Shown piece by piece: positions 19,552 through 28,599 of a stretch of 64,000 nt of DNA. Source of the stretch: an uncultured Bacilli bacterium. GTDB taxonomy: Bacteria; Bacillota_I; Bacilli_A; RF39; UBA660. The translations under genes were made by a program, and so were the position numbers. The stretch lies in NCBI GenBank assembly GCA_934131005.1, contig CAKOYV010000004.1:37344-101343 (forward strand). Reading direction: 5' to 3'. Positions within the stretch are counted from its first letter, which is position 1, and each line of letters begins with the position of its first letter. The notes under the pieces are model-generated. The model was not told the DNA's origin. It made no database searches and worked only from the letters and a program-made list of their open reading frames with translations.

Positions 19552-20250
19552 ATGTTTTTTAATATTTTAAATCTAATTTTGCAAAATATGTCTTTCTTTG
19601 GCAGTTACTCTAATGAAATGTTCCCCAAACCATTAACTGCTAAAGAAGAACAAAAATATATAAAAAAAATGCAAGAAGGTGATAAAGAAGCCCGCAATAA
19701 ATTAATTGAACATAATCTTAGATTAGTTGCCCATATCGTAAAAAAGTTTGAAACAACCACTAATGACATTGATGACTTAATAGGAATAGGCACTGTAGGA
19801 TTAATCAAAGGTATTGATACCTACTCTCCCGACAAAAAGGTAAAACTAACAACTTATGCCGCTAAATGTGCCGAAAACGAAATTCTCATGTACTTTCGCA
19901 GCAACAAAAAAAACTCCAAAAATATAAGTATTTATGAAGGCATAAGTTATGATAAAGAAGGAAATGAAATAACCATATTAGATGTCTTAAAAACCAAAGA
20001 TCCCGATTACTTAGAAGATATCTATATCAAAGATAATATTGAATTATTAAAAAAATATCTAAGAATATTAACTCCTCGCGAAAGAAAAATAATAAACATG
20101 CGTTACGGACTAAATAACCAAGAAGAAAGAACTCAAAAAGAAATTTCTAAAATAATGGGAATATCTAGAAGTTACGTATCTAGAATTGAAAAAAGAGCCA
20201 TCACTAAAATTTTAAGAGAATTCATAAAAAATAAGAATTATAGCGATTAA
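19552..20250 (+). CDS. sigK: Sporulation sigma factor, pro-sigma-K-like
   Basis: About 20-aa pro-sequence, then FPKPLTAKEEQKYI (compare the FPQPLS processing region of SigK). NLRLVAHIVKKF and YAAKCAENEILMYFRSNKK. Gene is intact, with no intervening element. Confidence 0.65.
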   Translation: MFFNILNLILQNMSFFGSYSNEMFPKPLTAKEEQKYIKKMQEGDKEARNKLIEHNLRLVAHIVKKFETTTNDIDDLIGIGTVGLIKGIDTYSPDKKVKLTTYAAKCAENEILMYFRSNKKNSKNISIYEGISYDKEGNEITILDVLKTKDPDYLEDIYIKDNIELLKKYLRILTPRERKIINMRYGLNNQEERTQKEISKIMGISRSYVSRIEKRAITKILREFIKNKNYSD

Positions 20251-20260
20251 ACTATAATTC

Positions 20261-21330
20261 TTACTTTTTTTCTCCAAAATGCTTTATTGGACTCAATATT
20301 TTATACTTCTCACACTTATCTCCATTCAAAGTATAAACCTTTGAACAACTATATTCCGCTTTAGCATCCTTCTTATCATTAAGAACACACGTATTTCCCG
20401 CTAAGGCATAACCATCACTACATTCAAATCCCTTTATAGCATCAGCTGTTATTGTAGCAACACACTGATCTCCCTTAAGTTCTAATCCACCAGCACAATA
20501 ATATTTAGGACTTGGCTGAATAGAAGATGTTGTAATACATTGATTACCATAAGTCTGATAACCAGATGGACAACTATATTTAACTGTTGCTGGTATAGTT
20601 ACACTATAAACACAACTGCCACCACTCAAACTACCATTAGAACAATAAGAACTACCACGATTATAACTAGCATCCTTATAACATTGAGTACCACTCTTAG
20701 TATATCCATATGGACATTCACAAGTTGTAGTTGTAGAACTTTGACATCCAGGATAATATGGGTTATATCTACAAATATAAGAATTATTATATCCCCCACC
20801 ACTTGTTGAACAAGTAGCATTTCTATAGCACTTACTTCCAGACAATGTATCACCACTACTACAACTATATCCCCCACCACTAGTAATTGGAGAACTATAT
20901 TCCGTCTTACTACATTTATTTCCAGACAAAGTATAACCAGATGGACAACTGTAACTAGCACTAGCTGTTTTATTACTAGCTGTAGAACACTTATTATCAT
21001 ATAAAATATAACCAGATGGACAAGTATAAGTAACAGCAGCCTTTGTCTTCTGTTCCTGAATACATTTATCCCCCTCTAATCTTCCAAGTCCAGCACATTG
21101 ATAAGCTTGCTTAGCATCCTTAGTATCGCTCTTTAAACATACCTTATCCTGTAAAGTATAACCATCATCACAAACATATTTAACATTAGCATCAATAGAT
21201 TTCAATGTTTTACTACATTTATTATTTTTATTTAAAGAATAACCCTTATCACAAGTATACCAACCCTTAACACAAAGACCATAATTATTTATATAACCCT
21301 TATCACATTTTTTAGTACTAAAAACACATC
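20261..21330 (-). repeat. Coding tandem repeats: about 13 Cys-bounded 12-residue loops (C-x-x-G-Y-x-L-x-G/N-x-K/Q-C) in the kinase ectodomain
   Basis: Examples: CDKGYSLNKNNKC, CDDGYTLQDKVC, CPSGYTLSGNKC, CPSGYQTYGNQC, CSDGYALAGNTC. Confidence 0.7.
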
Positions 21331-22549
21331 CCTTTAATAACAACAAAAGCAAAATAATTAAAATACCTATAATAATATTTTTTCTATTATCAATATAAAA
21401 TTGCTTATCAGATAATTTTTCTCTTAATTCAACAATAGAATCAATAATTTTTTCACAAATATTATCCTCACCAAAAATACTTTCCTTTTTATCAATAATT
21501 TTATTCAAAAACTTATCATAAATAAAACCATGTCGCCTATTACTAGCAGTTTTATTATTATCAACAGCTACACTACTATCTACATTGCTATTAGACAAAC
21601 GATTAACATCATAAATACTAATAGTTTTATTCGAACCAATTATATTTTGAGCATCCTTATTTGCAATAGAATTATCATCCCCATTATCAGTCAAAAAACG
21701 CTTCAAAGCCCCCTTCATAACACTAACATCTTTATATCTATCAGTAACATAAAAAGCACAAGCATTAAAAATAATCGTCATCAAATCATTGCTAACACCC
21801 TTAATAATAGGAATAACAGAGCCAGACATTCTAAGCTTAAAAGCCATTTTATCACTAACAAACAAACCAACAAAAGGCAACTTACCTCTATTCAAGAATT
21901 GATACATAACAAGCCCTAAAGAATAAAGATCAGCACTATTAGTAATATTCTCATTATTATAAACTTCAGGAGCCACATAAAGACAATTATTATCAATTTT
22001 ATCTAAAACACCAAAATCTCCTAACTTATACTTACCATCACTACCTATAAAAATATTATTTGGTTTAATATTTTTATGAACTATTCCATATTTTTTCAAA
22101 AACTCTAGTGCATTACAAATATCAATTCCCATTTGAGCAATATCATTAACCAAAAGTTTTTTATTATTAAAATCTCCTAAAACTTCAGAAACTAATTCCA
22201 TTCTTAGATAAACATCATATCCCACTCCATCTCGATGTGGCTCCTGATAATAATCATAATAATTTAATATATATTGATTATTATATCTTCTAATAATATC
22301 AAAATCTTTTTTTAATTCATCTAATATTTTTTTATAATAATCATTGGCTTCATTTCTTGATTTTATTAATCCTAGACGTATTAATTCATCTATATCACCA
22401 GTTGTTTTAGGAAAGCTAATATACTTAATAGCACTATAAACATTAGCATTTCCATTATTTTTAACAGCTTTATAAACTTCTCCTGTACTACCTTCACCTA
22501 TTTTATCAACAATCTGCCAGCCATCCCATAAAACTCTTCTCATATTCAC
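20261..22549 (-). CDS. Hanks-type Ser/Thr protein kinase homolog (HRD->HKN variant) with TM segment and extracellular Cys-bounded repeat domain
   Basis: IGEGSTGEVYKA, AIK, DFG and APE are present. The catalytic loop reads VHKNIKPNN. TM segment IIIGILIILLLLLL. About 13 C-x2-G-Y-x-L-x-G-x-K-C units in the C-terminal part. Confidence 0.85.
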   Translation of the reverse strand: MNMRRVLWDGWQIVDKIGEGSTGEVYKAVKNNGNANVYSAIKYISFPKTTGDIDELIRLGLIKSRNEANDYYKKILDELKKDFDIIRRYNNQYILNYYDYYQEPHRDGVGYDVYLRMELVSEVLGDFNNKKLLVNDIAQMGIDICNALEFLKKYGIVHKNIKPNNIFIGSDGKYKLGDFGVLDKIDNNCLYVAPEVYNNENITNSADLYSLGLVMYQFLNRGKLPFVGLFVSDKMAFKLRMSGSVIPIIKGVSNDLMTIIFNACAFYVTDRYKDVSVMKGALKRFLTDNGDDNSIANKDAQNIIGSNKTISIYDVNRLSNSNVDSSVAVDNNKTASNRRHGFIYDKFLNKIIDKKESIFGEDNICEKIIDSIVELREKLSDKQFYIDNRKNIIIGILIILLLLLLKGCVFSTKKCDKGYINNYGLCVKGWYTCDKGYSLNKNNKCSKTLKSIDANVKYVCDDGYTLQDKVCLKSDTKDAKQAYQCAGLGRLEGDKCIQEQKTKAAVTYTCPSGYILYDNKCSTASNKTASASYSCPSGYTLSGNKCSKTEYSSPITSGGGYSCSSGDTLSGSKCYRNATCSTSGGGYNNSYICRYNPYYPGCQSSTTTTCECPYGYTKSGTQCYKDASYNRGSSYCSNGSLSGGSCVYSVTIPATVKYSCPSGYQTYGNQCITTSSIQPSPKYYCAGGLELKGDQCVATITADAIKGFECSDGYALAGNTCVLNDKKDAKAEYSCSKVYTLNGDKCEKYKILSPIKHFGEKK

Positions 22550-24876
22550 CTCCTATTATTTAATTGTCTTCTTAACAAGAAATAGCACGCTACTAAAATT
22601 ACCAATCCCATTAAAACTATAATTTTAATATCATTCATATAATGTACTTTTGTAAAAATAAAATAATCTTCAGGATCCCTCTCATAACTAGGTTGCAATT
22701 TTTGAATTTCATTAGGCATACTATTCAAATCGCATGTAATACCAAAAAGTTGAATAGCCCATCTATCTAAAATAAATACCGATAATTTTTCTAAAACTCC
22801 ATCAAGTGGCAAAAAAGAACCATTTAAAACAAGTTGAGGTATAAGTGTAATTGGCGCTAACATAACAGCATTAGATGAATTTTTAGAAATTGCTGACAAA
22901 AACAAACCTAAACAAGTTGAACAAACTGTTATTAAGAAAAACGAGCCCATCATCTCAAGAGGCCAATTAGTCATTATTCCATCATCCGGAACAAAACCAA
23001 AGAAATACATAAAAACAGAAATAAATAGCACCGACTGAATCAAACACAAAATAATTTGAATCCATAATTTTGATGCAAAATATGCCGACAATTTCAAATC
23101 TGCCATATATTCTCGCTTCAAAATTGATCTTTCTTTACAAATAACTTGAATAGAATTAAGCGTTCCTAACCAAATTGCTGCTATTGTCATCGCAAACAAC
23201 ATCATTTTTGTCGTTTCATACCCCTCAAACATATCATCAGGAGCAACTAATGCAAACATATAGGCAATAAATGGAGACTGTAATAACAATAAAAGTAACA
23301 TCTGCCTATCATTCAAAATAGTTTTTGCATATCTCTTAGATAAAGTAATAAACTGTTTCATAAAAGATCTCTTATTTCTTCCCTGTTTAACAAAACTATT
23401 AGAACTCTTACGGACTACTACTTTCTCACAATATGCTGAATTATTATAAGCATTATACCATTTATTAACATCACTACTAATCAAATTATAAATATCAACA
23501 AAATCATTAACCCCAAAAAAATTAAGTGTATCCCTTGGTGAGCCCGCAAAACAAAGCTTTCCTCCTTCACCAAAGAAACAAATTTTATCACATAAATGCA
23601 AATTCAAAGTATTATGTGTTACTAAAATAATTGTCTTCCCACTAGCAGCCATCTTTTTCAAAATATTCATCAAACTTCTCTCTGTACCAGGATCAAGACC
23701 GCTAGTAGGTTCATCTAGGAAAAACAATTTAGGATCTGCTAATAACTCAACAGCTATACTAGCTCTCTTTCTCTGACCACCAGAAAGATTTCTAATCATA
23801 ACATCTTTTTTAGTTGTTAGCTCTACTATCTCTAAAACTTCTTTTATTCTTTTGTTCTTCTCATCCATTGTAGCATCATCTGGCATTCTTAAATTAGCCG
23901 AATATTTCAACATATCATATAAAGTTAAATCTTTAAAAACAATATCATCTTGAGGAACATAACCAATAATTTTCTTCAAAACAGCATAATTTTTAAATAA
24001 ATCATTACCATTAACATAAACATGACCACTCGTTGGACGTGAAACTCCACTAATACAATTCATAAAAGTACTCTTACCAGCACCAGAGCCACCAACAAGT
24101 GCAACAAATTCCCCAGGTTTAATAGATAAATTAACATGATAAGAAATATCTCTTTTTTTTCCTTTAACACTAACAGTTTTAACTATATCAACTGCATCAA
24201 CTCCAACACCTCGATCATACATTTGATAAAAAATTCTTCCCTTATCATATATCAACTTAGCATCTGCAATTAAAATAACATCTCTTTCTTTTAAAACCAC
24301 TTGTCCCTTTAATAAATAGCCATTAACAAGAATACTACTAGTAGGATCATTAGAAACTAAAATGAATTTATCACCATTCTTATAAATATTAGCAATATTA
24401 AGTGCAACACTAACATGATGAAGAACTATATCTGATTTAACATCTCTACCAATAGACACAACATCTTTAGAATTTAAATCAAACTGCTGCCAAGCATCAA
24501 CATTTTCTCCCAAAGAAATTATCATAATTACTCCTATTGCAAGAGGAGAAGCAGGATTATCTATCTTAATAGCATCACCATCTCGTAAATAAATTTCACT
24601 TACTCTATTATTATTCACAAAAATTCCATTTATACTATTATTATCAACAACTTTAAGTTTATCATCAACAAATTCAAAAAAACCATGATTAGGAGAAACT
24701 AATAAAGAATTCAATATAATATCATTATTACTATTCCTTCCAAACAAAATTCTTTTTTTTCTAAATTTATTTAAAACTATATTTTTAATGTTATTTTCTT
24801 CAATTATAGTAACTGTATATTTTACATCCTTTTTTAAAGAAGAATTAGCTATAACCTCGCTCATTTTACCAGCCAC
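22546..24876 (-). CDS. ABC transporter (NBD-TMD fusion, ABC-2/ABCG-like) with two N-terminal FHA domains
   Basis: Two FHA signatures (GR...S..H...NG). Walker A GGSGAGKST, ABC signature LSGGQRKR, Walker B FFLDEPTSGLD. Six C-terminal TM helices. Stop overlaps the kinase start by 4 nt. Confidence 0.85.
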   Translation of the reverse strand: MAGKMSEVIANSSLKKDVKYTVTIIEENNIKNIVLNKFRKKRILFGRNSNNDIILNSLLVSPNHGFFEFVDDKLKVVDNNSINGIFVNNNRVSEIYLRDGDAIKIDNPASPLAIGVIMIISLGENVDAWQQFDLNSKDVVSIGRDVKSDIVLHHVSVALNIANIYKNGDKFILVSNDPTSSILVNGYLLKGQVVLKERDVILIADAKLIYDKGRIFYQMYDRGVGVDAVDIVKTVSVKGKKRDISYHVNLSIKPGEFVALVGGSGAGKSTFMNCISGVSRPTSGHVYVNGNDLFKNYAVLKKIIGYVPQDDIVFKDLTLYDMLKYSANLRMPDDATMDEKNKRIKEVLEIVELTTKKDVMIRNLSGGQRKRASIAVELLADPKLFFLDEPTSGLDPGTERSLMNILKKMAASGKTIILVTHNTLNLHLCDKICFFGEGGKLCFAGSPRDTLNFFGVNDFVDIYNLISSDVNKWYNAYNNSAYCEKVVVRKSSNSFVKQGRNKRSFMKQFITLSKRYAKTILNDRQMLLLLLLQSPFIAYMFALVAPDDMFEGYETTKMMLFAMTIAAIWLGTLNSIQVICKERSILKREYMADLKLSAYFASKLWIQIILCLIQSVLFISVFMYFFGFVPDDGIMTNWPLEMMGSFFLITVCSTCLGLFLSAISKNSSNAVMLAPITLIPQLVLNGSFLPLDGVLEKLSVFILDRWAIQLFGITCDLNSMPNEIQKLQPSYERDPEDYFIFTKVHYMNDIKIIVLMGLVILVACYFLLRRQLNNRR

Positions 24877-24980
24877 CTATTTCTACCATAATATTAACAA
24901 TATTATAACATTTATCTATTAACAAATCAATTCTAAACATGAAGAAAAAACAGAGTTTTAACAACCCCATCTTTTCATCT

Positions 24981-26480
24981 TTATTTAAATAATCCTTTAA
25001 AGAAATTTTTAATATTATTAACTATTCCCTTGTTACTAGTATTAGTATTGCTACTACTTGTATCCCTCATATTTACCTGATTCAAGAAACTAGTAACTTT
25101 ATTTTTATATTCCTCTTTATGTTGTCCAACAATTATAAATGCATGTGGAGAACCGTCAGGTCTATATTGTTCTACAACATTACTATTACTAATAACAGTA
25201 TCAGCATTACTAGGAGGAACAGTAGTATCACCACTACCATGAATTACCATAACTTTAACATTACTATCCGCACGTCTTCCATTCCCAAAAGCATCTTGAT
25301 AATTATCAAAGTTATTACTACTCAAACCAGTTTTAATTAAATTACCTGTCAAAACTGTTTTTATTAATAAATTAACAGTATTAGTATTATCACCATTAAT
25401 TTTCAAGCTTCCCAAACTTCCTAAAGTATTACCACTAGATTTATTTGCTCCCCAAGACTTAAATCCACTACCATTACCAAATAATTCATTTGAATCACTA
25501 GAAATAGTATTCTTAGAACCACTAGTACTTGGTAACATTGAAGTTATAATACCTGTCATAGATGTATATCCACAATCATCAACAACTCCTACAACATTCT
25601 TACTAGATATCGATGGCATAGTTCCAACTCCTGTAACATTGACACCACCCATTGTCAAAGATTGAATAGTAGTAGCTCCTCCAAGAGAAATACCATGAAT
25701 TACAATTTTACTTGGTTTAGTATCCTTCTTAATATCACTACTTGTATTCAAATAATCCAACCAATTCATAACATCAAGACTCTCCAAAAATCCCATAGCA
25801 ACGCTACCATTACTACTACCAAATCCTCTCAAGTCAATTGCCAAAACATTAACATTATTATCTAAATACATTTTACCAACAGCACTAGCCATTGAATCAG
25901 CACTCATCATATTACCATGAACAAGTAATGCCCAATTATTAGAAGTTTTACTAGCATAATAAACATTAGCATGTAGCTGAACACAATAACTATTTTTATC
26001 CTTACCTGTAGCTGCAATAAACTTACAAACATTATCTGAACTAATTGTAACCTCACTATCAGGAGTCAACTTACTACCACCATTAAATAATCCCAAAATA
26101 CCATCAAAAAATGAATTTAAACTAAGGGTCATAGTGTTAACAAGCTCAACTGTACTATCATAATCATCTGTTACAGTAGTATTTAATAAATTATTAGCCA
26201 TATAATCTACTCCATCATCATTATGATATTTACTTTGTAAATTCTTTATCTCACTAGTGATTGTATGCTTAGCCAAACTAACAGACATATTAGAATCAAT
26301 ATTTTCTAAACAATCACCAACATCATATAAAAAATTTTGATAAATTTCTCCCTTACTCTCATCAAGAGCATTTTTATTATCTCTTATAGAAAACATTCCC
26401 ATTGAAAAAGATAATACAGATACAACACATAAAACAATAGCAACAATAATTATCCATTGTTTCTTACCAAATTTATTCAC
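24981..26480 (-). CDS. Membrane-anchored alpha/beta-hydrolase (esterase/lipase-like)
   Basis: N-terminal TM or signal segment. GxSxG nucleophile elbow (HGISLGG). 499 aa, Ser/Asn/Gly-rich. Confidence 0.65.
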   Translation of the reverse strand: MNKFGKKQWIIIVAIVLCVVSVLSFSMGMFSIRDNKNALDESKGEIYQNFLYDVGDCLENIDSNMSVSLAKHTITSEIKNLQSKYHNDDGVDYMANNLLNTTVTDDYDSTVELVNTMTLSLNSFFDGILGLFNGGSKLTPDSEVTISSDNVCKFIAATGKDKNSYCVQLHANVYYASKTSNNWALLVHGNMMSADSMASAVGKMYLDNNVNVLAIDLRGFGSSNGSVAMGFLESLDVMNWLDYLNTSSDIKKDTKPSKIVIHGISLGGATTIQSLTMGGVNVTGVGTMPSISSKNVVGVVDDCGYTSMTGIITSMLPSTSGSKNTISSDSNELFGNGSGFKSWGANKSSGNTLGSLGSLKINGDNTNTVNLLIKTVLTGNLIKTGLSSNNFDNYQDAFGNGRRADSNVKVMVIHGSGDTTVPPSNADTVISNSNVVEQYRPDGSPHAFIIVGQHKEEYKNKVTSFLNQVNMRDTSSSNTNTSNKGIVNNIKNFFKGLFK

Positions 26481-26504: not shown

Positions 26505-27845
26505 TCAGTTTAACACTTCTTCAATCATTAAAGCAAGCTCCGATGCATATTTTTTAATTTTTTCTAAATCATTACCCTCAATCATAACTCTTATCAATGG
26601 CTCCGTTCCACTAGGTCTTACTAAAACACGCCCATCACTTGCAAGCTCATTACTAATTCTATCAATTTCATCACTAATTTCATCATCAGTATAAAAATCA
26701 TTCTTCTTCTCATTCAAAACCTTAACATTAATCAATACTTGTGGATATTTTTCCATAACACTAGCAAGCTCATTCAAACTTTTGCCACTTCTCTTCATAA
26801 TTTCAAGCACTTTAATAGAAGTCAATTCTCCATCACCAGTATTTGCAAATTTTTTAAATATAACATGACCAGATTGCTCTCCACCAAGAACATATCCCTT
26901 TAGTAACATTTCCTCCAAAACATACCTATCCCCAACTTTAGTTGCCACAAAATTAATTTTTTTATCTTCACAAAACTTAACAAATCCCAAATTACTCATT
27001 ACTGTTCCAACAACAGTATCTCCCTGAAGCTCTCCTCTAGTATGCATATCATTTGCCAAAATAGCTAAAATATAATCCCCATCAATAATATTCCCCGAAG
27101 AGTCTACCATAATACATCTATCAGCATCTCCATCATAAGCAATTCCACAATCAAAGCCCTCACTAACAACTTTCTCAACTAACCCCTCAATATGAGTAGA
27201 ACCACAATTATCATTAATATTAATACCATCTGGTCTACAATTAATAATATAACTATCTGCCTCTAACTTCGAAAATAACGCATTAGCAACAGCAGAAGCA
27301 GAACCATTAGCACAATCAACAGCAATCTTTAAACCATTCAACTTAACACTACAACTATTAGCAAGATGTTCAACATAATCAACAATTGGATTATAACCTA
27401 CTAAAACATGACCAATTTTATCACCAAAATTTTTATAATCATCAATATTATCCATAACATCTTCAATCTCATCTTCTAAAGCATCAGGAAGTTTATATCC
27501 CATTCTATCAAAAATTTTAATACCATTATATTCACTAGGATTATGACTAGCTGATACCATAATACCAGCTTGAGCCTCATATTTACAAATTAAATAAGAA
27601 ACACAAGGTGTAGGAACTACTCCCAAATTAATAACATCAACCCCCACAGAACATAAACCAGCAATTAAACTACTAACTAGCATATCACCACTAATCCTTG
27701 TATCCTGTCCTATCAAAATCGTAACTTTCTTTCTCTTCTTAGTTAGTACAATTGCTGTAGCAATTCCCAAATTCATAGCAAACTCAGCTGTTAAATCTAC
27801 ATTAGCAATTCCTCTAACACCATCCGTACCAAATAATCTTCTCAT
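26505..27845 (-). CDS. glmM: Phosphoglucosamine mutase
   Basis: Active-site SASHNP. Four-domain alpha-D-phosphohexomutase layout. 446 aa. Confidence 0.93.
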   Translation of the reverse strand: MRRLFGTDGVRGIANVDLTAEFAMNLGIATAIVLTKKRKKVTILIGQDTRISGDMLVSSLIAGLCSVGVDVINLGVVPTPCVSYLICKYEAQAGIMVSASHNPSEYNGIKIFDRMGYKLPDALEDEIEDVMDNIDDYKNFGDKIGHVLVGYNPIVDYVEHLANSCSVKLNGLKIAVDCANGSASAVANALFSKLEADSYIINCRPDGININDNCGSTHIEGLVEKVVSEGFDCGIAYDGDADRCIMVDSSGNIIDGDYILAILANDMHTRGELQGDTVVGTVMSNLGFVKFCEDKKINFVATKVGDRYVLEEMLLKGYVLGGEQSGHVIFKKFANTGDGELTSIKVLEIMKRSGKSLNELASVMEKYPQVLINVKVLNEKKNDFYTDDEISDEIDRISNELASDGRVLVRPSGTEPLIRVMIEGNDLEKIKKYASELALMIEEVLN

Positions 27846-28507
27846 TATCTTACCTCTTTTCTAACTATCTCTGAACTACTCTTTACAATACAATTTTCTA
27901 AAATAACACCTCTAACTCTAGTTAATGGATAAATAGTCACATTAGAACCAATAATTGTTCCTGGAAATAAAGTACTATTACAACCAATTTCTACATAATC
28001 ACCAATAATAGAACCCATCTTACGAAGAGATGTCTCTATCTTCTCATTCCCATTCGAAATAACAATATTACTACGATCACTCTTAATATTAGCCGCAACA
28101 ACTCCAGCTCCCATATGAGAATGATACCCCATAATAGAATCTCCTAAATAATTAAAATGTGGAATTTGACAATTATCAAAAATAATAGAATTCTTTATCT
28201 CACAAGAATTACCTATAACACAATTACGTCCCACTATAACACTACCTCTAATATAAGCACAATGCCTAATCTCAGCTTTCTTATCTATAATACAAGGTCC
28301 AATTATCTTAGCACTCTCATCAACATATGCATCTTTAGAAATCCATATATCATCCCCAATCTTCTCATATTCATCACTATCTAATTTACTTCCAATTTTA
28401 ATAACCCAATCTCTAATTTTTGGAATTATTTTAATAAAATCATCACACTCTTCAAACATTTCTTTACCAATAGTGTGATTTATATCTACATACTTACTTA
28501 TATCCAT
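27845..28507 (-). CDS. Hexapeptide-repeat (left-handed beta-helix) acetyltransferase, GlmU C-terminal-domain-like, standalone
   Basis: Hexapeptide repeats including ...EIKNSIIFDNCQIPHFNYLGDSIMGYHSHMGAGVVAAN..., which resembles the GlmU acetyltransferase core. No uridylyltransferase domain. Its start overlaps the glmM stop. Confidence 0.6.
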   Translation of the reverse strand: MDISKYVDINHTIGKEMFEECDDFIKIIPKIRDWVIKIGSKLDSDEYEKIGDDIWISKDAYVDESAKIIGPCIIDKKAEIRHCAYIRGSVIVGRNCVIGNSCEIKNSIIFDNCQIPHFNYLGDSIMGYHSHMGAGVVAANIKSDRSNIVISNGNEKIETSLRKMGSIIGDYVEIGCNSTLFPGTIIGSNVTIYPLTRVRGVILENCIVKSSSEIVRKEVR

Positions 28508-28599
28508 ATCAAATCCTCCTATGCTAAACATAATAATCTTATCACAAAATTACAAAGAAAAAAAGAGAAAACATCAAGTTTTACTCTTCTACAATAAAT

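Follow-up and report, generated by a model that had tools for sequence, protein, structure and literature searches.

Does a locus that sets a Hanks-type kinase gene beside the gene of an exporter with two FHA domains encode a counterpart of the mycobacterial PknF-Rv1747 system, and what is left for such a kinase to do when its catalytic residues are gone? The question is raised by three neighbouring genes on the minus strand of contig CAKOYV010000004.1 (assembly GCA_934131005.1, positions 37,344 to 101,343 of the forward strand), a 64,000-nucleotide stretch of DNA from an uncultured Bacilli bacterium that we refer to throughout as the window. The genes encode a hydrolase, an FHA-FHA-ABC exporter and a receptor-type kinase with a cysteine-rich ectodomain. 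The G+C content of the window is about 28-30%, and the few named homologues of these proteins come from gut metagenome-assembled genomes (MAGs) labelled "Bacilli bacterium". To our knowledge, the coupling of a kinase to an FHA-ABC exporter has been studied essentially only in Mycobacterium tuberculosis, where the substrate and the mechanism of FHA control are still debated. An earlier note, drawn from the letters of this DNA, had proposed a three-gene module here; all three minus-strand open reading frames (ORFs) are confirmed, and Pfam finds every domain that the note had named. Our reading, to which we give a probability of roughly 0.6, is that the exporter and kinase genes form a two-gene signalling and export unit in which a receptor kinase controls an FHA exporter, and that the kinase of the window is a pseudokinase serving as sensor and scaffold.

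Conservation of the kinase-exporter pair

Related loci were gathered from exact-protein look-ups and two collection scans, and were annotated with hidden Markov models (HMMs) built from our own alignments. A scan of genome contigs with a single protein returned two true relatives and three generic ABC ATPases, while a scan of metagenome contigs with the FHA-tandem alignment returned at least two loci, both carrying all three genes. The loci represent eight lineages: the window; L001-3; L004-6/10/11/21; L007-8; L009; L015, which is partial; L018-19; and L020.

The pairing that the earlier note had asked about is conserved, as in all eight lineages only a few nucleotides separate the FHA-ABC gene from the kinase gene that comes after it, with identities to the window of 53-84% for the ABC protein and 36-59% for the kinase. 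The upstream gene of L015 is cut by the end of its contig, yet its product shares 54% identity with the ABC protein of the window. The flanking genes differ from lineage to lineage and include tRNA synthetases, a GH25 lysozyme, capsule genes, a pilin and ribosomal protein S4, with glmM in that place in the window. Additionally, a Mogibacterium MAG (L016) carries a kinase domain that is 34% identical but joined to a Big_2 ectodomain, and there is no FHA-ABC neighbour at that locus. Adjacency in eight of eight lineages, the differing flanks and the absence of the exporter from the Mogibacterium locus together indicate that the pairing is specific to the kinase family with the Cys-rich ectodomain.

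These observations bear on a reading in which the genes are mere neighbours with no regulatory tie, or belong to an anti-phage defence system or a bacteriocin-immunity exporter, which we consider highly improbable. ABC-2 exporters often serve immunity functions, and PADLOC gives domain-level matches to the mad6 and PD-T4-6 kinases and to the mad3 ATPase; these matches, however, are limited to generic kinase and ATPase domains, and no methylase, nuclease, bacteriocin or lantibiotic gene lies near the examined loci. Identification of the kinase as a MADS or PD-T4-6 defence kinase was rejected, as the NCBIfam MAD6 model gives 67 bits where its cutoff is 460, and no partner genes lie nearby. Chance proximity, for its part, is hard to square with an adjacency that persists in every lineage despite unrelated flanks.

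The hydrolase gene lies directly upstream of the exporter gene in six of the seven lineages that could be assessed and is the least constant member of the trio. In L009 its slot is filled by a Peptidase_S11/PBP5 DD-carboxypeptidase gene (L009 4803-5945), with VanY nearby. GH25, Peptidase_M15, capsule (Wzz/CpsB) or pilin genes stand near the pair at other loci, a loose, recurrent cell-envelope flavour.

Catalytic state of the kinase

The kinase protein is arranged, by hydropathy, as a kinase-like domain, a juxtamembrane segment, one transmembrane (TM) segment (residues 384-413) and a Cys-rich ectodomain of about 350 residues. Its family is small: only 26 homologue clusters match over the full length, and these together with the window protein make up the panel of 27 sequences used below. 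The kinase domain matches MST2, PknB, RSK and PknA alike in the PDB, at about 50 bits, and PknF is not among the matches. The top match, 4lg4 chain A (STK3/MST2), has HRNIKAGN as its aligned loop, with Asn at the position of the HRD Asp as in the window.

The window kinase is predicted to be catalytically impaired, in line with the earlier note, as it has lost the HRD Asp (Table 1), the αC Glu and the activation-loop Thr. Asp80 stands in place of the αC Glu, and the activation loop, DFGVLDKIDNNCLYVAPE, is shortened, contains neither Ser nor Thr and no longer has the GT..Y motif. The protein keeps the Gly-rich loop GEGSTG, the β3 Lys40, Asn163 and the DFG Asp176. The last three are invariant in a five-sequence alignment (A1), with which the 27-sequence panel agrees for the β3 Lys and the DFG Asp. 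We take this combination, a retained Lys and DFG Asp with loss of the HRD Asp, to resemble that of eukaryotic HER3.

The degeneration is confined to one part of the family. Six of the 27 sequences, namely the window protein and P0121-P0125, form a coherent subclade with 55-98% identity to the window. Their catalytic loop reads HKN, YKN or HGN and not H-x-D, the αC Glu position holds D, N, K or Q, and in all six the activation loop is shortened and the GT..Y motif lost; three of them have also lost the DFG Gly. The H-x-D Asp, the αC Glu and the activation-loop Thr are kept in the other 21. On these alignments, the pseudokinase is a recently derived state of one subclade and not a property of the whole family. 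Within that clade, sequence identity of the kinase domain is on average 19 points lower than that of the ectodomain; in catalytically intact pairs matched for ectodomain divergence (n = 28), the gap is 1.6 points. We conclude that constraint has relaxed or shifted in the cytoplasmic domain, with the ectodomain still strongly conserved.

It is conceivable that the kinase is still active by a non-canonical mechanism and phosphorylates itself or the exporter as PknF does, which would make this an ordinary kinase-FHA-ABC module. The retained Gly-rich loop, Lys40, Asn163 and Asp176 count for this, as does the weak activity kept by some eukaryotic kinases with Asn at the HRD Asp position, such as HER3. 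However, the change from Asp to Asn at this position is also the standard kinase-dead mutation, and here it comes together with loss of the αC Glu and of the activation-loop Thr in a single clade, where sister members of the window protein lose the DFG Gly as well. Furthermore, only in this clade does the kinase domain outpace the ectodomain in evolution, and the best PDB sequence match itself aligns with an HRN loop, not an HRD. We therefore judge continued activity to be distinctly unlikely.

The FHA domains and a candidate docking site

The exporter has the architecture given in the earlier note: Pfam finds FHA (PF00498) in two stretches (74 bits), ABC_tran (113 bits) and ABC2_membrane (73 bits), and hydropathy places six hydrophobic TM segments in the C-terminal third. 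The Walker A motif, Q-loop, LSGGQ signature, Walker B with its Glu, D-loop and H-loop of the ATPase are all intact. With the nucleotide-binding domain (NBD) preceding a transmembrane domain of the ABC2_membrane family, the protein classes as an ABC-2 or ABCG-like (type V) exporter. It scores 240 bits against the ABCG/White-type model TIGR00955, for which the cutoff is 736, and we therefore do not assign it to that subfamily. At L018 (3585-5999), ABC proteins of the P0104/P0106 type carry an N-terminal extension of 30-50 residues ahead of FHA-1, with a faint match to FtsK_SpoIIIE_N.

The two FHA domains differ in their phosphothreonine (pThr) pockets. In FHA-1 the four canonical pThr residues listed in Table 1 are invariant in all 16 aligned family sequences, and the best PDB sequence matches of the domain are FHA-2 (E 2.9e-8) and FHA-1 (E 2.4e-6) of Rv1747, followed by GarA, OdhI and EmbR. 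When FHA-2 is mapped on the FHA-1 HMM, Arg140 is retained, and the Ser, His and Asn positions are occupied by Ala154, Ile157 and Ser176. FHA-2 is fully canonical in the relatives P0068 and P0020, and it is partly degenerate also beside intact kinases (P0116, P0092 and P0106). We considered whether degeneration of FHA-2 tracks the pseudokinase state and rejected all but a loose association, as partly degenerate FHA-2 domains occur with intact kinases. The domains are nearly contiguous, being separated by only about 10-25 conserved residues and by no low-complexity linker.

A candidate ligand for FHA-1 lies on the kinase itself. About 20 residues past the kinase domain, the juxtamembrane segment contains a K-T-I-S-I-Y-D motif whose Thr and +3 Ile are invariant in all 27 sequences, pseudokinases included, while the flanks are variable and rich in insertions and deletions. 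T-x-x-I/L/V is the classical FHA ligand pattern, and phosphorylated Thr307 is, judging from this conservation, likely to be the site that FHA-1 of the exporter reads. A conserved NBD-proximal "KTV" in the exporter was also considered as a phospho-site and was ruled out, since its position appears to be the first β-strand of the ATPase fold.

The degenerate FHA-2 raises the alternative that the pseudokinase is a decaying remnant beside a kinase-independent or constitutive exporter, with the cytoplasmic domain of the kinase and FHA-2 both drifting toward loss. The accelerated divergence of the kinase domain and the parallel loss of the FHA-2 pThr pocket are what such decay would look like. Against it, all six subclade ORFs are intact and full-length, members of the window-type 90% cluster occur on up to about 60 contigs, and the ectodomain remains 65-85% identical within the clade with every Cys kept. 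Translational coupling to the exporter gene is also preserved. The retention of the FHA-1 pocket, the T-x-x-I motif, the nucleotide-pocket residues Lys40, Asn163 and Asp176, and the ectodomain speaks for continued coupling rather than simple decay, and we regard the decay explanation as unlikely.

The Cys-rich ectodomain

The ectodomain is built of C-x10-C hairpins with 14-residue spacers between them, and every one of its Cys residues is conserved in the alignment of homologues. An AlphaFold 2 model predicts an all-β hairpin rod (pLDDT, the predicted local distance difference test, 83.5), and comparison with the PDB gives no convincing match. An exhaustive phmmer search of 1.84 billion representative proteins finds 722 protein clusters with the repeat at E <= 1e-3, of which 295 reach E <= 1e-10, in proteins of 91-4088 residues with up to 26 repeat stretches. 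Five of the nine scanned non-kinase repeat proteins (P0362, P0367, P0370, P0371 and P0375) end in an F_T4SS_TraN domain (216-285 bits). The earlier note had called the ectodomain novel. That holds in the sense that no Pfam model covers it; it is not unique, as the repeat occurs in 722 clusters that include TraN homologues. We therefore view it as a widespread extracellular repeat module that surface-recognition proteins of conjugation systems also carry.

TraN is the mating-pair stabilisation protein of F-type type IV secretion systems, and its long homologues carry the Cys-rich hairpin repeat N-terminal to PF06986. It is a surface protein that recognises outer-membrane proteins of the partner cell (PMC9246713). 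The window kinase, in contrast, has no PF06986 match in Pfam; it has only the repeat in common with TraN, and holds it in a TM-anchored protein of Gram-positive type.

Comparison with known systems

The closest known arrangement is PknF-Rv1747 of M. tuberculosis, of which the earlier note had called the locus a counterpart. The resemblance lies in the architecture, with two N-terminal FHA domains followed by an NBD and an ABC-2 permease, in the adjoining co-oriented Hanks kinase gene, and in the Rv1747 matches of the FHA domain. In both systems FHA-1 is the critical or conserved domain, while FHA-2 is expendable (Rv1747) or degenerate (window). In Rv1747, FHA-1 is essential and FHA-2 dispensable, and other kinases make up for deletion of pknF (PMC3138270); moreover, the Ser-to-Ala change found at Ala154 of the window FHA-2 is the one used to abolish pThr binding in Rv1747 (PMC3138270).

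The differences are nevertheless substantial. The gene order is reversed, with pknF preceding Rv1747 by 62 bp in M. tuberculosis (PMC3138270) and the ABC gene preceding the kinase gene by 2 nt in the window. Rv1747 has a disordered linker between its FHA domains that bears the phospho-acceptors Thr150 and Thr208 (PMC3138270), for which the window exporter has no equivalent. Unlike PknF, the window kinase has a large Cys-rich ectodomain and is a predicted pseudokinase within a family in which 21 of 27 clusters have competent catalytic motifs, and its similarity to other kinases is generic. An esterase gene is usually linked, and the host belongs to a low-GC uncultured Bacilli lineage. The module is thus best described, from sequence comparison, as an analogue of PknF-Rv1747, and a counterpart by descent is not supported. 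The view that such a module is not a textbook feature of Firmicutes holds, as our literature search found no kinase/FHA-ABC pair outside Actinobacteria. It likewise found no description of the present kinase family, or of the pseudokinase pattern in which Lys and DFG are kept and HRD is lost.

Catalytically deficient Hanks-type proteins are known from Firmicutes. CD2148 of Clostridioides difficile is a membrane-anchored kinase of this type, lacking catalytic-loop residues, and is thought to modulate PrkC-dependent phosphorylation (PMC9674922, PMC8262956). Compared by description, it differs from the window kinase in that six conserved residues are gone, including both the catalytic-loop Asp and Asn, and it has no ectodomain; no FHA-ABC partner is described for it in these two papers. 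The bacterial pseudokinase families ActPs1-3, DLHK, GLW, CP1 and DYD are also Hanks-fold proteins with degraded motifs, several of them membrane-associated (PMC12599244; bioRxiv 10.1101/2025.01.12.632604). By their descriptions, the window kinase is unlike all seven in keeping Lys40 and the DFG Asp while having lost the HRD Asp, the αC Glu and the activation loop.

A similar logic is seen in the PpkA-TssL-Fha switch of the type VI secretion system, where a membrane component is reported to be Thr-phosphorylated by a Hanks kinase, upon which an FHA protein docks on the pThr and a membrane export machine is switched on (PMC3953482). That switch belongs to other machinery in Gram-negative hosts and has its FHA domain on a separate protein; homology is confined to the FHA and kinase domains.

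A model for exporter control

We propose that the exporter is an ABCG-like homodimer with a tandem FHA module at its N-terminus, and that the coupled gene encodes its cognate single-pass receptor kinase with a Cys-rich hairpin-repeat ectodomain. In the ancestral, intact form the ectodomain would sense an extracellular ligand or surface, and the active kinase would then autophosphorylate, including on the invariant Thr of K-T-I-S-I-Y-D. FHA-1 of the exporter would dock on the resulting pT-x-x-I, and this recruitment would control export, so that regulation would run from kinase to exporter. The exported substrate may be envelope-related and is probably lipidic or a glycolipid, and the surface esterase may process it outside the cell. 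In the subclade of the window, a different Hanks kinase would phosphorylate Thr307 in trans, or this residue would be bound in its unphosphorylated form.

Given that FHA-1, the T-x-x-I motif, Lys40, Asn163, Asp176 and the ectodomain are all retained, the most likely role of the window protein is that of a sensor and scaffold. The results on Rv1747 FHA-1 and on pknF deletion, together with CD2148, offer precedents by analogy that support this role. A more specific proposal is that the pseudokinase gates the exporter, with FHA-1 reading a Thr307 trans-phosphorylated by a housekeeping kinase, while the TraN-like ectodomain senses a cell-surface or host ligand; we put this forward tentatively and consider it doubtful as a whole.

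Several points weigh against the proposed control of the exporter by its kinase partner. The T-x-x-I motif could have a structural function in a C-terminal extension of the kinase instead. No second Hanks kinase was found in the 64-kb window, and because of this the trans-acting kinase is hypothetical. As to the substrate, a PDB sequence search with the transporter core gives generic NBD matches only (ABCA, ABCB and ABCG), which therefore say nothing about what is exported, and the fold matches of the hydrolase are likewise generic esterases. The link of the hydrolase gene to the others is weaker than that within the pair, as follows from the terminator-like hairpin and promoter that precede the exporter gene in the window and from the absence of the hydrolase from L009. 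Finally, all of the sampled lineages are uncultured MAG lineages, and reference genomes were thinly covered, giving two related loci.

Organisation of the locus

The positions of the features discussed here are collected in Table 1.

Table 1 Features of the kinase-exporter locus, with positions in the 64,000-nt window (aa, amino acids)
Feature	Position	Strand	Basis or detail
Three co-oriented ORFs	20261-26480	minus	order: hydrolase, FHA-FHA-ABC-ABC2 exporter, kinase
Membrane-anchored extracytoplasmic alpha/beta-hydrolase (predicted), 499 aa	24981..26480	(-)	Pfam, TM segment, triad
Hairpin and T-run, terminator- or attenuator-like	24944..24976	(-)	terminator scan; dG -15.8 kcal/mol, z -5.1
Promoter-like TTGATT-17-TGnTATAAT with TG extension	24902..24930	(-)	10/12 matches
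FHA-FHA-NBD-ABC2 half-transporter, 772 aa from ATG (776 from GTG 24876)	22546..24864	(-)	Pfam
FHA-1, ~aa 15-112	24529..24822	(-)	canonical pThr residues Arg43, Ser57, His60, Asn79
FHA-2, ~aa 120-215, degenerate	24220..24507	(-)	aligned to FHA-1 HMM and family alignments
Shine-Dalgarno AGGAGG of kinase gene	22549..22554	(-)	inside last ABC-gene codons, read directly
Receptor Hanks-type pseudokinase (predicted), 760 aa	20261..22543	(-)	Pkinase 94 bits
Catalytic loop HKNIKPNN, aa 156-163	22055..22078	(-)	Asn158 replaces HRD catalytic Asp
Juxtamembrane K-T-I-S-I-Y-D, aa 306-312	21608..21628	(-)	Thr307 and Ile310 form T-x-x-I
Ectodomain, ~13 units Y-x-C-x2-G-Y-x-L-x-G-x2-C	20264..21325	(-)	Cys spacing
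Intrinsic terminator after kinase gene, 12-bp stem and U-run	20226..20262	(-)	dG -12.3, z -4.6

At the junction of the pair, the 4-nt ATGA overlap described in the earlier note is absent. The junction is AGGAGGTGAATATG, with a 2-nt gap, and direct reading of the sequence gives AAT AGG AGG TGA AT ATG. The kinase ATG at 22543 lies 5 nt past the AGGAGG and 2 nt past the TGA stop of the ABC gene, and it is the likely start, in agreement with public gene calls of 760 residues. An alternative GTG at 22549 (762 residues) would produce a 4-nt GTGA overlap, but it lies directly on the Shine-Dalgarno sequence. Since that sequence forms part of the final codons of the ABC gene, the two genes are predicted to be translationally coupled with either kinase start. 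As for the exporter, the length of 776 residues in the earlier note applies only from the GTG, and the ATG gives the 772 residues of the public gene calls.

The same note had placed the hydrolase gene downstream; in the direction of transcription it is upstream of the ABC gene. The 116-nt spacer between the hydrolase gene and the ABC ATG holds both the hairpin with its T-run and the promoter-like site (Table 1). The hairpin and both promoter hexamers are kept in the L020 spacer, and the L007 spacer aligns in part, with the hairpin kept. Promoter-like sites are no more numerous in the region than in shuffled sequences, so the argument for an internal promoter is its intergenic position and its conservation. 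Taken with the terminator that follows the kinase gene, these elements suggest that in the window lineage the ABC-kinase pair is probably served by a promoter and a terminator of its own, and that the hydrolase gene there probably lies in a separate transcription unit. In those relatives whose hydrolase-ABC gap is 30-35 nt, the three genes must be co-transcribed.

The window hydrolase gene begins only 24 nt after glmM and may therefore be transcribed with glmM and the hexapeptide-protein amino-sugar genes. In the window (26505-28531, minus strand), glmM is preceded by the gene of a 228-residue left-handed β-helix (hexapeptide) protein, which overlaps the glmM start by 1 nt. On the other side of the locus, a convergent gene on the plus strand (19552-20250) encodes a sigma-70 family protein with regions 2 and 4 and an N-terminal extension like that of sporulation-type pro-sigma factors. 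The hairpin terminator of the kinase gene reaches into the 3' end of this convergent gene and is therefore probably bidirectional. Over the full window (1-64000), the minus strand carries almost every large ORF and the GC skew stays strongly negative (cumulative -13), as would fit a segment of a single replichore that is read against the leading strand.

The linked hydrolase

The hydrolase matches Hydrolase_4, Abhydrolase_1/6 and Peptidase_S9 in Pfam at 26-30 bits and consists of an N-terminal TM segment (residues 4-33), a helical region and a serine-esterase core. Its description as a membrane-anchored GxSxG hydrolase stands, as there is a GISLG elbow and a triad of Ser265, Asp418 and His446. 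Twenty homologues of 33-68% identity keep, without exception, Ser265 (in H-G-x-S-L-G), Asp418 and His446 as well as a DDCGYxSM motif. An AlphaFold 2 model has an α/β core with pLDDT above 90, together with the N-terminal TM, the helical region and a disordered insert rich in Ser, Gly and Asn. Foldseek matches at an E-value of about 1e-10 are carboxyl- and feruloyl-esterases, monoglyceride lipases and the MARTX ABH domain, which is also the best sequence match. We predict from these features that the protein is a surface-exposed serine esterase or lipase. The Ser/Gly/Asn-rich insert occupies residues 317-365 of the core (window 25386-25532, minus strand), and homologue lengths of 391-656 residues suggest that it is a hypervariable surface loop or spacer.

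Implications

The kind of system described here is known from PknF-Rv1747. What appears to be new is the Bacilli pair, the kinase family and the pseudokinase pattern, for which our evidence is purely comparative and comes from uncultured organisms. The same kinase-FHA-exporter logic would seem to have been assembled independently in low-GC gut Bacilli, with a phospho-site geometry that differs from that of Rv1747 in that the probable docking Thr is on the kinase and not on the transporter. The family also brings a large, putatively ligand-binding ectodomain and a linked surface esterase, and it flags a widespread Cys-rich extracellular repeat without a Pfam model that TraN-type surface-recognition proteins also carry. 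As intact members and a recently derived pseudokinase clade occur in one family, it offers a natural experiment for how Hanks kinases become scaffolds. If the pseudokinase does gate the exporter, a single gene family would document how an active kinase-FHA-transporter circuit naturally gave way to one based on a scaffold.

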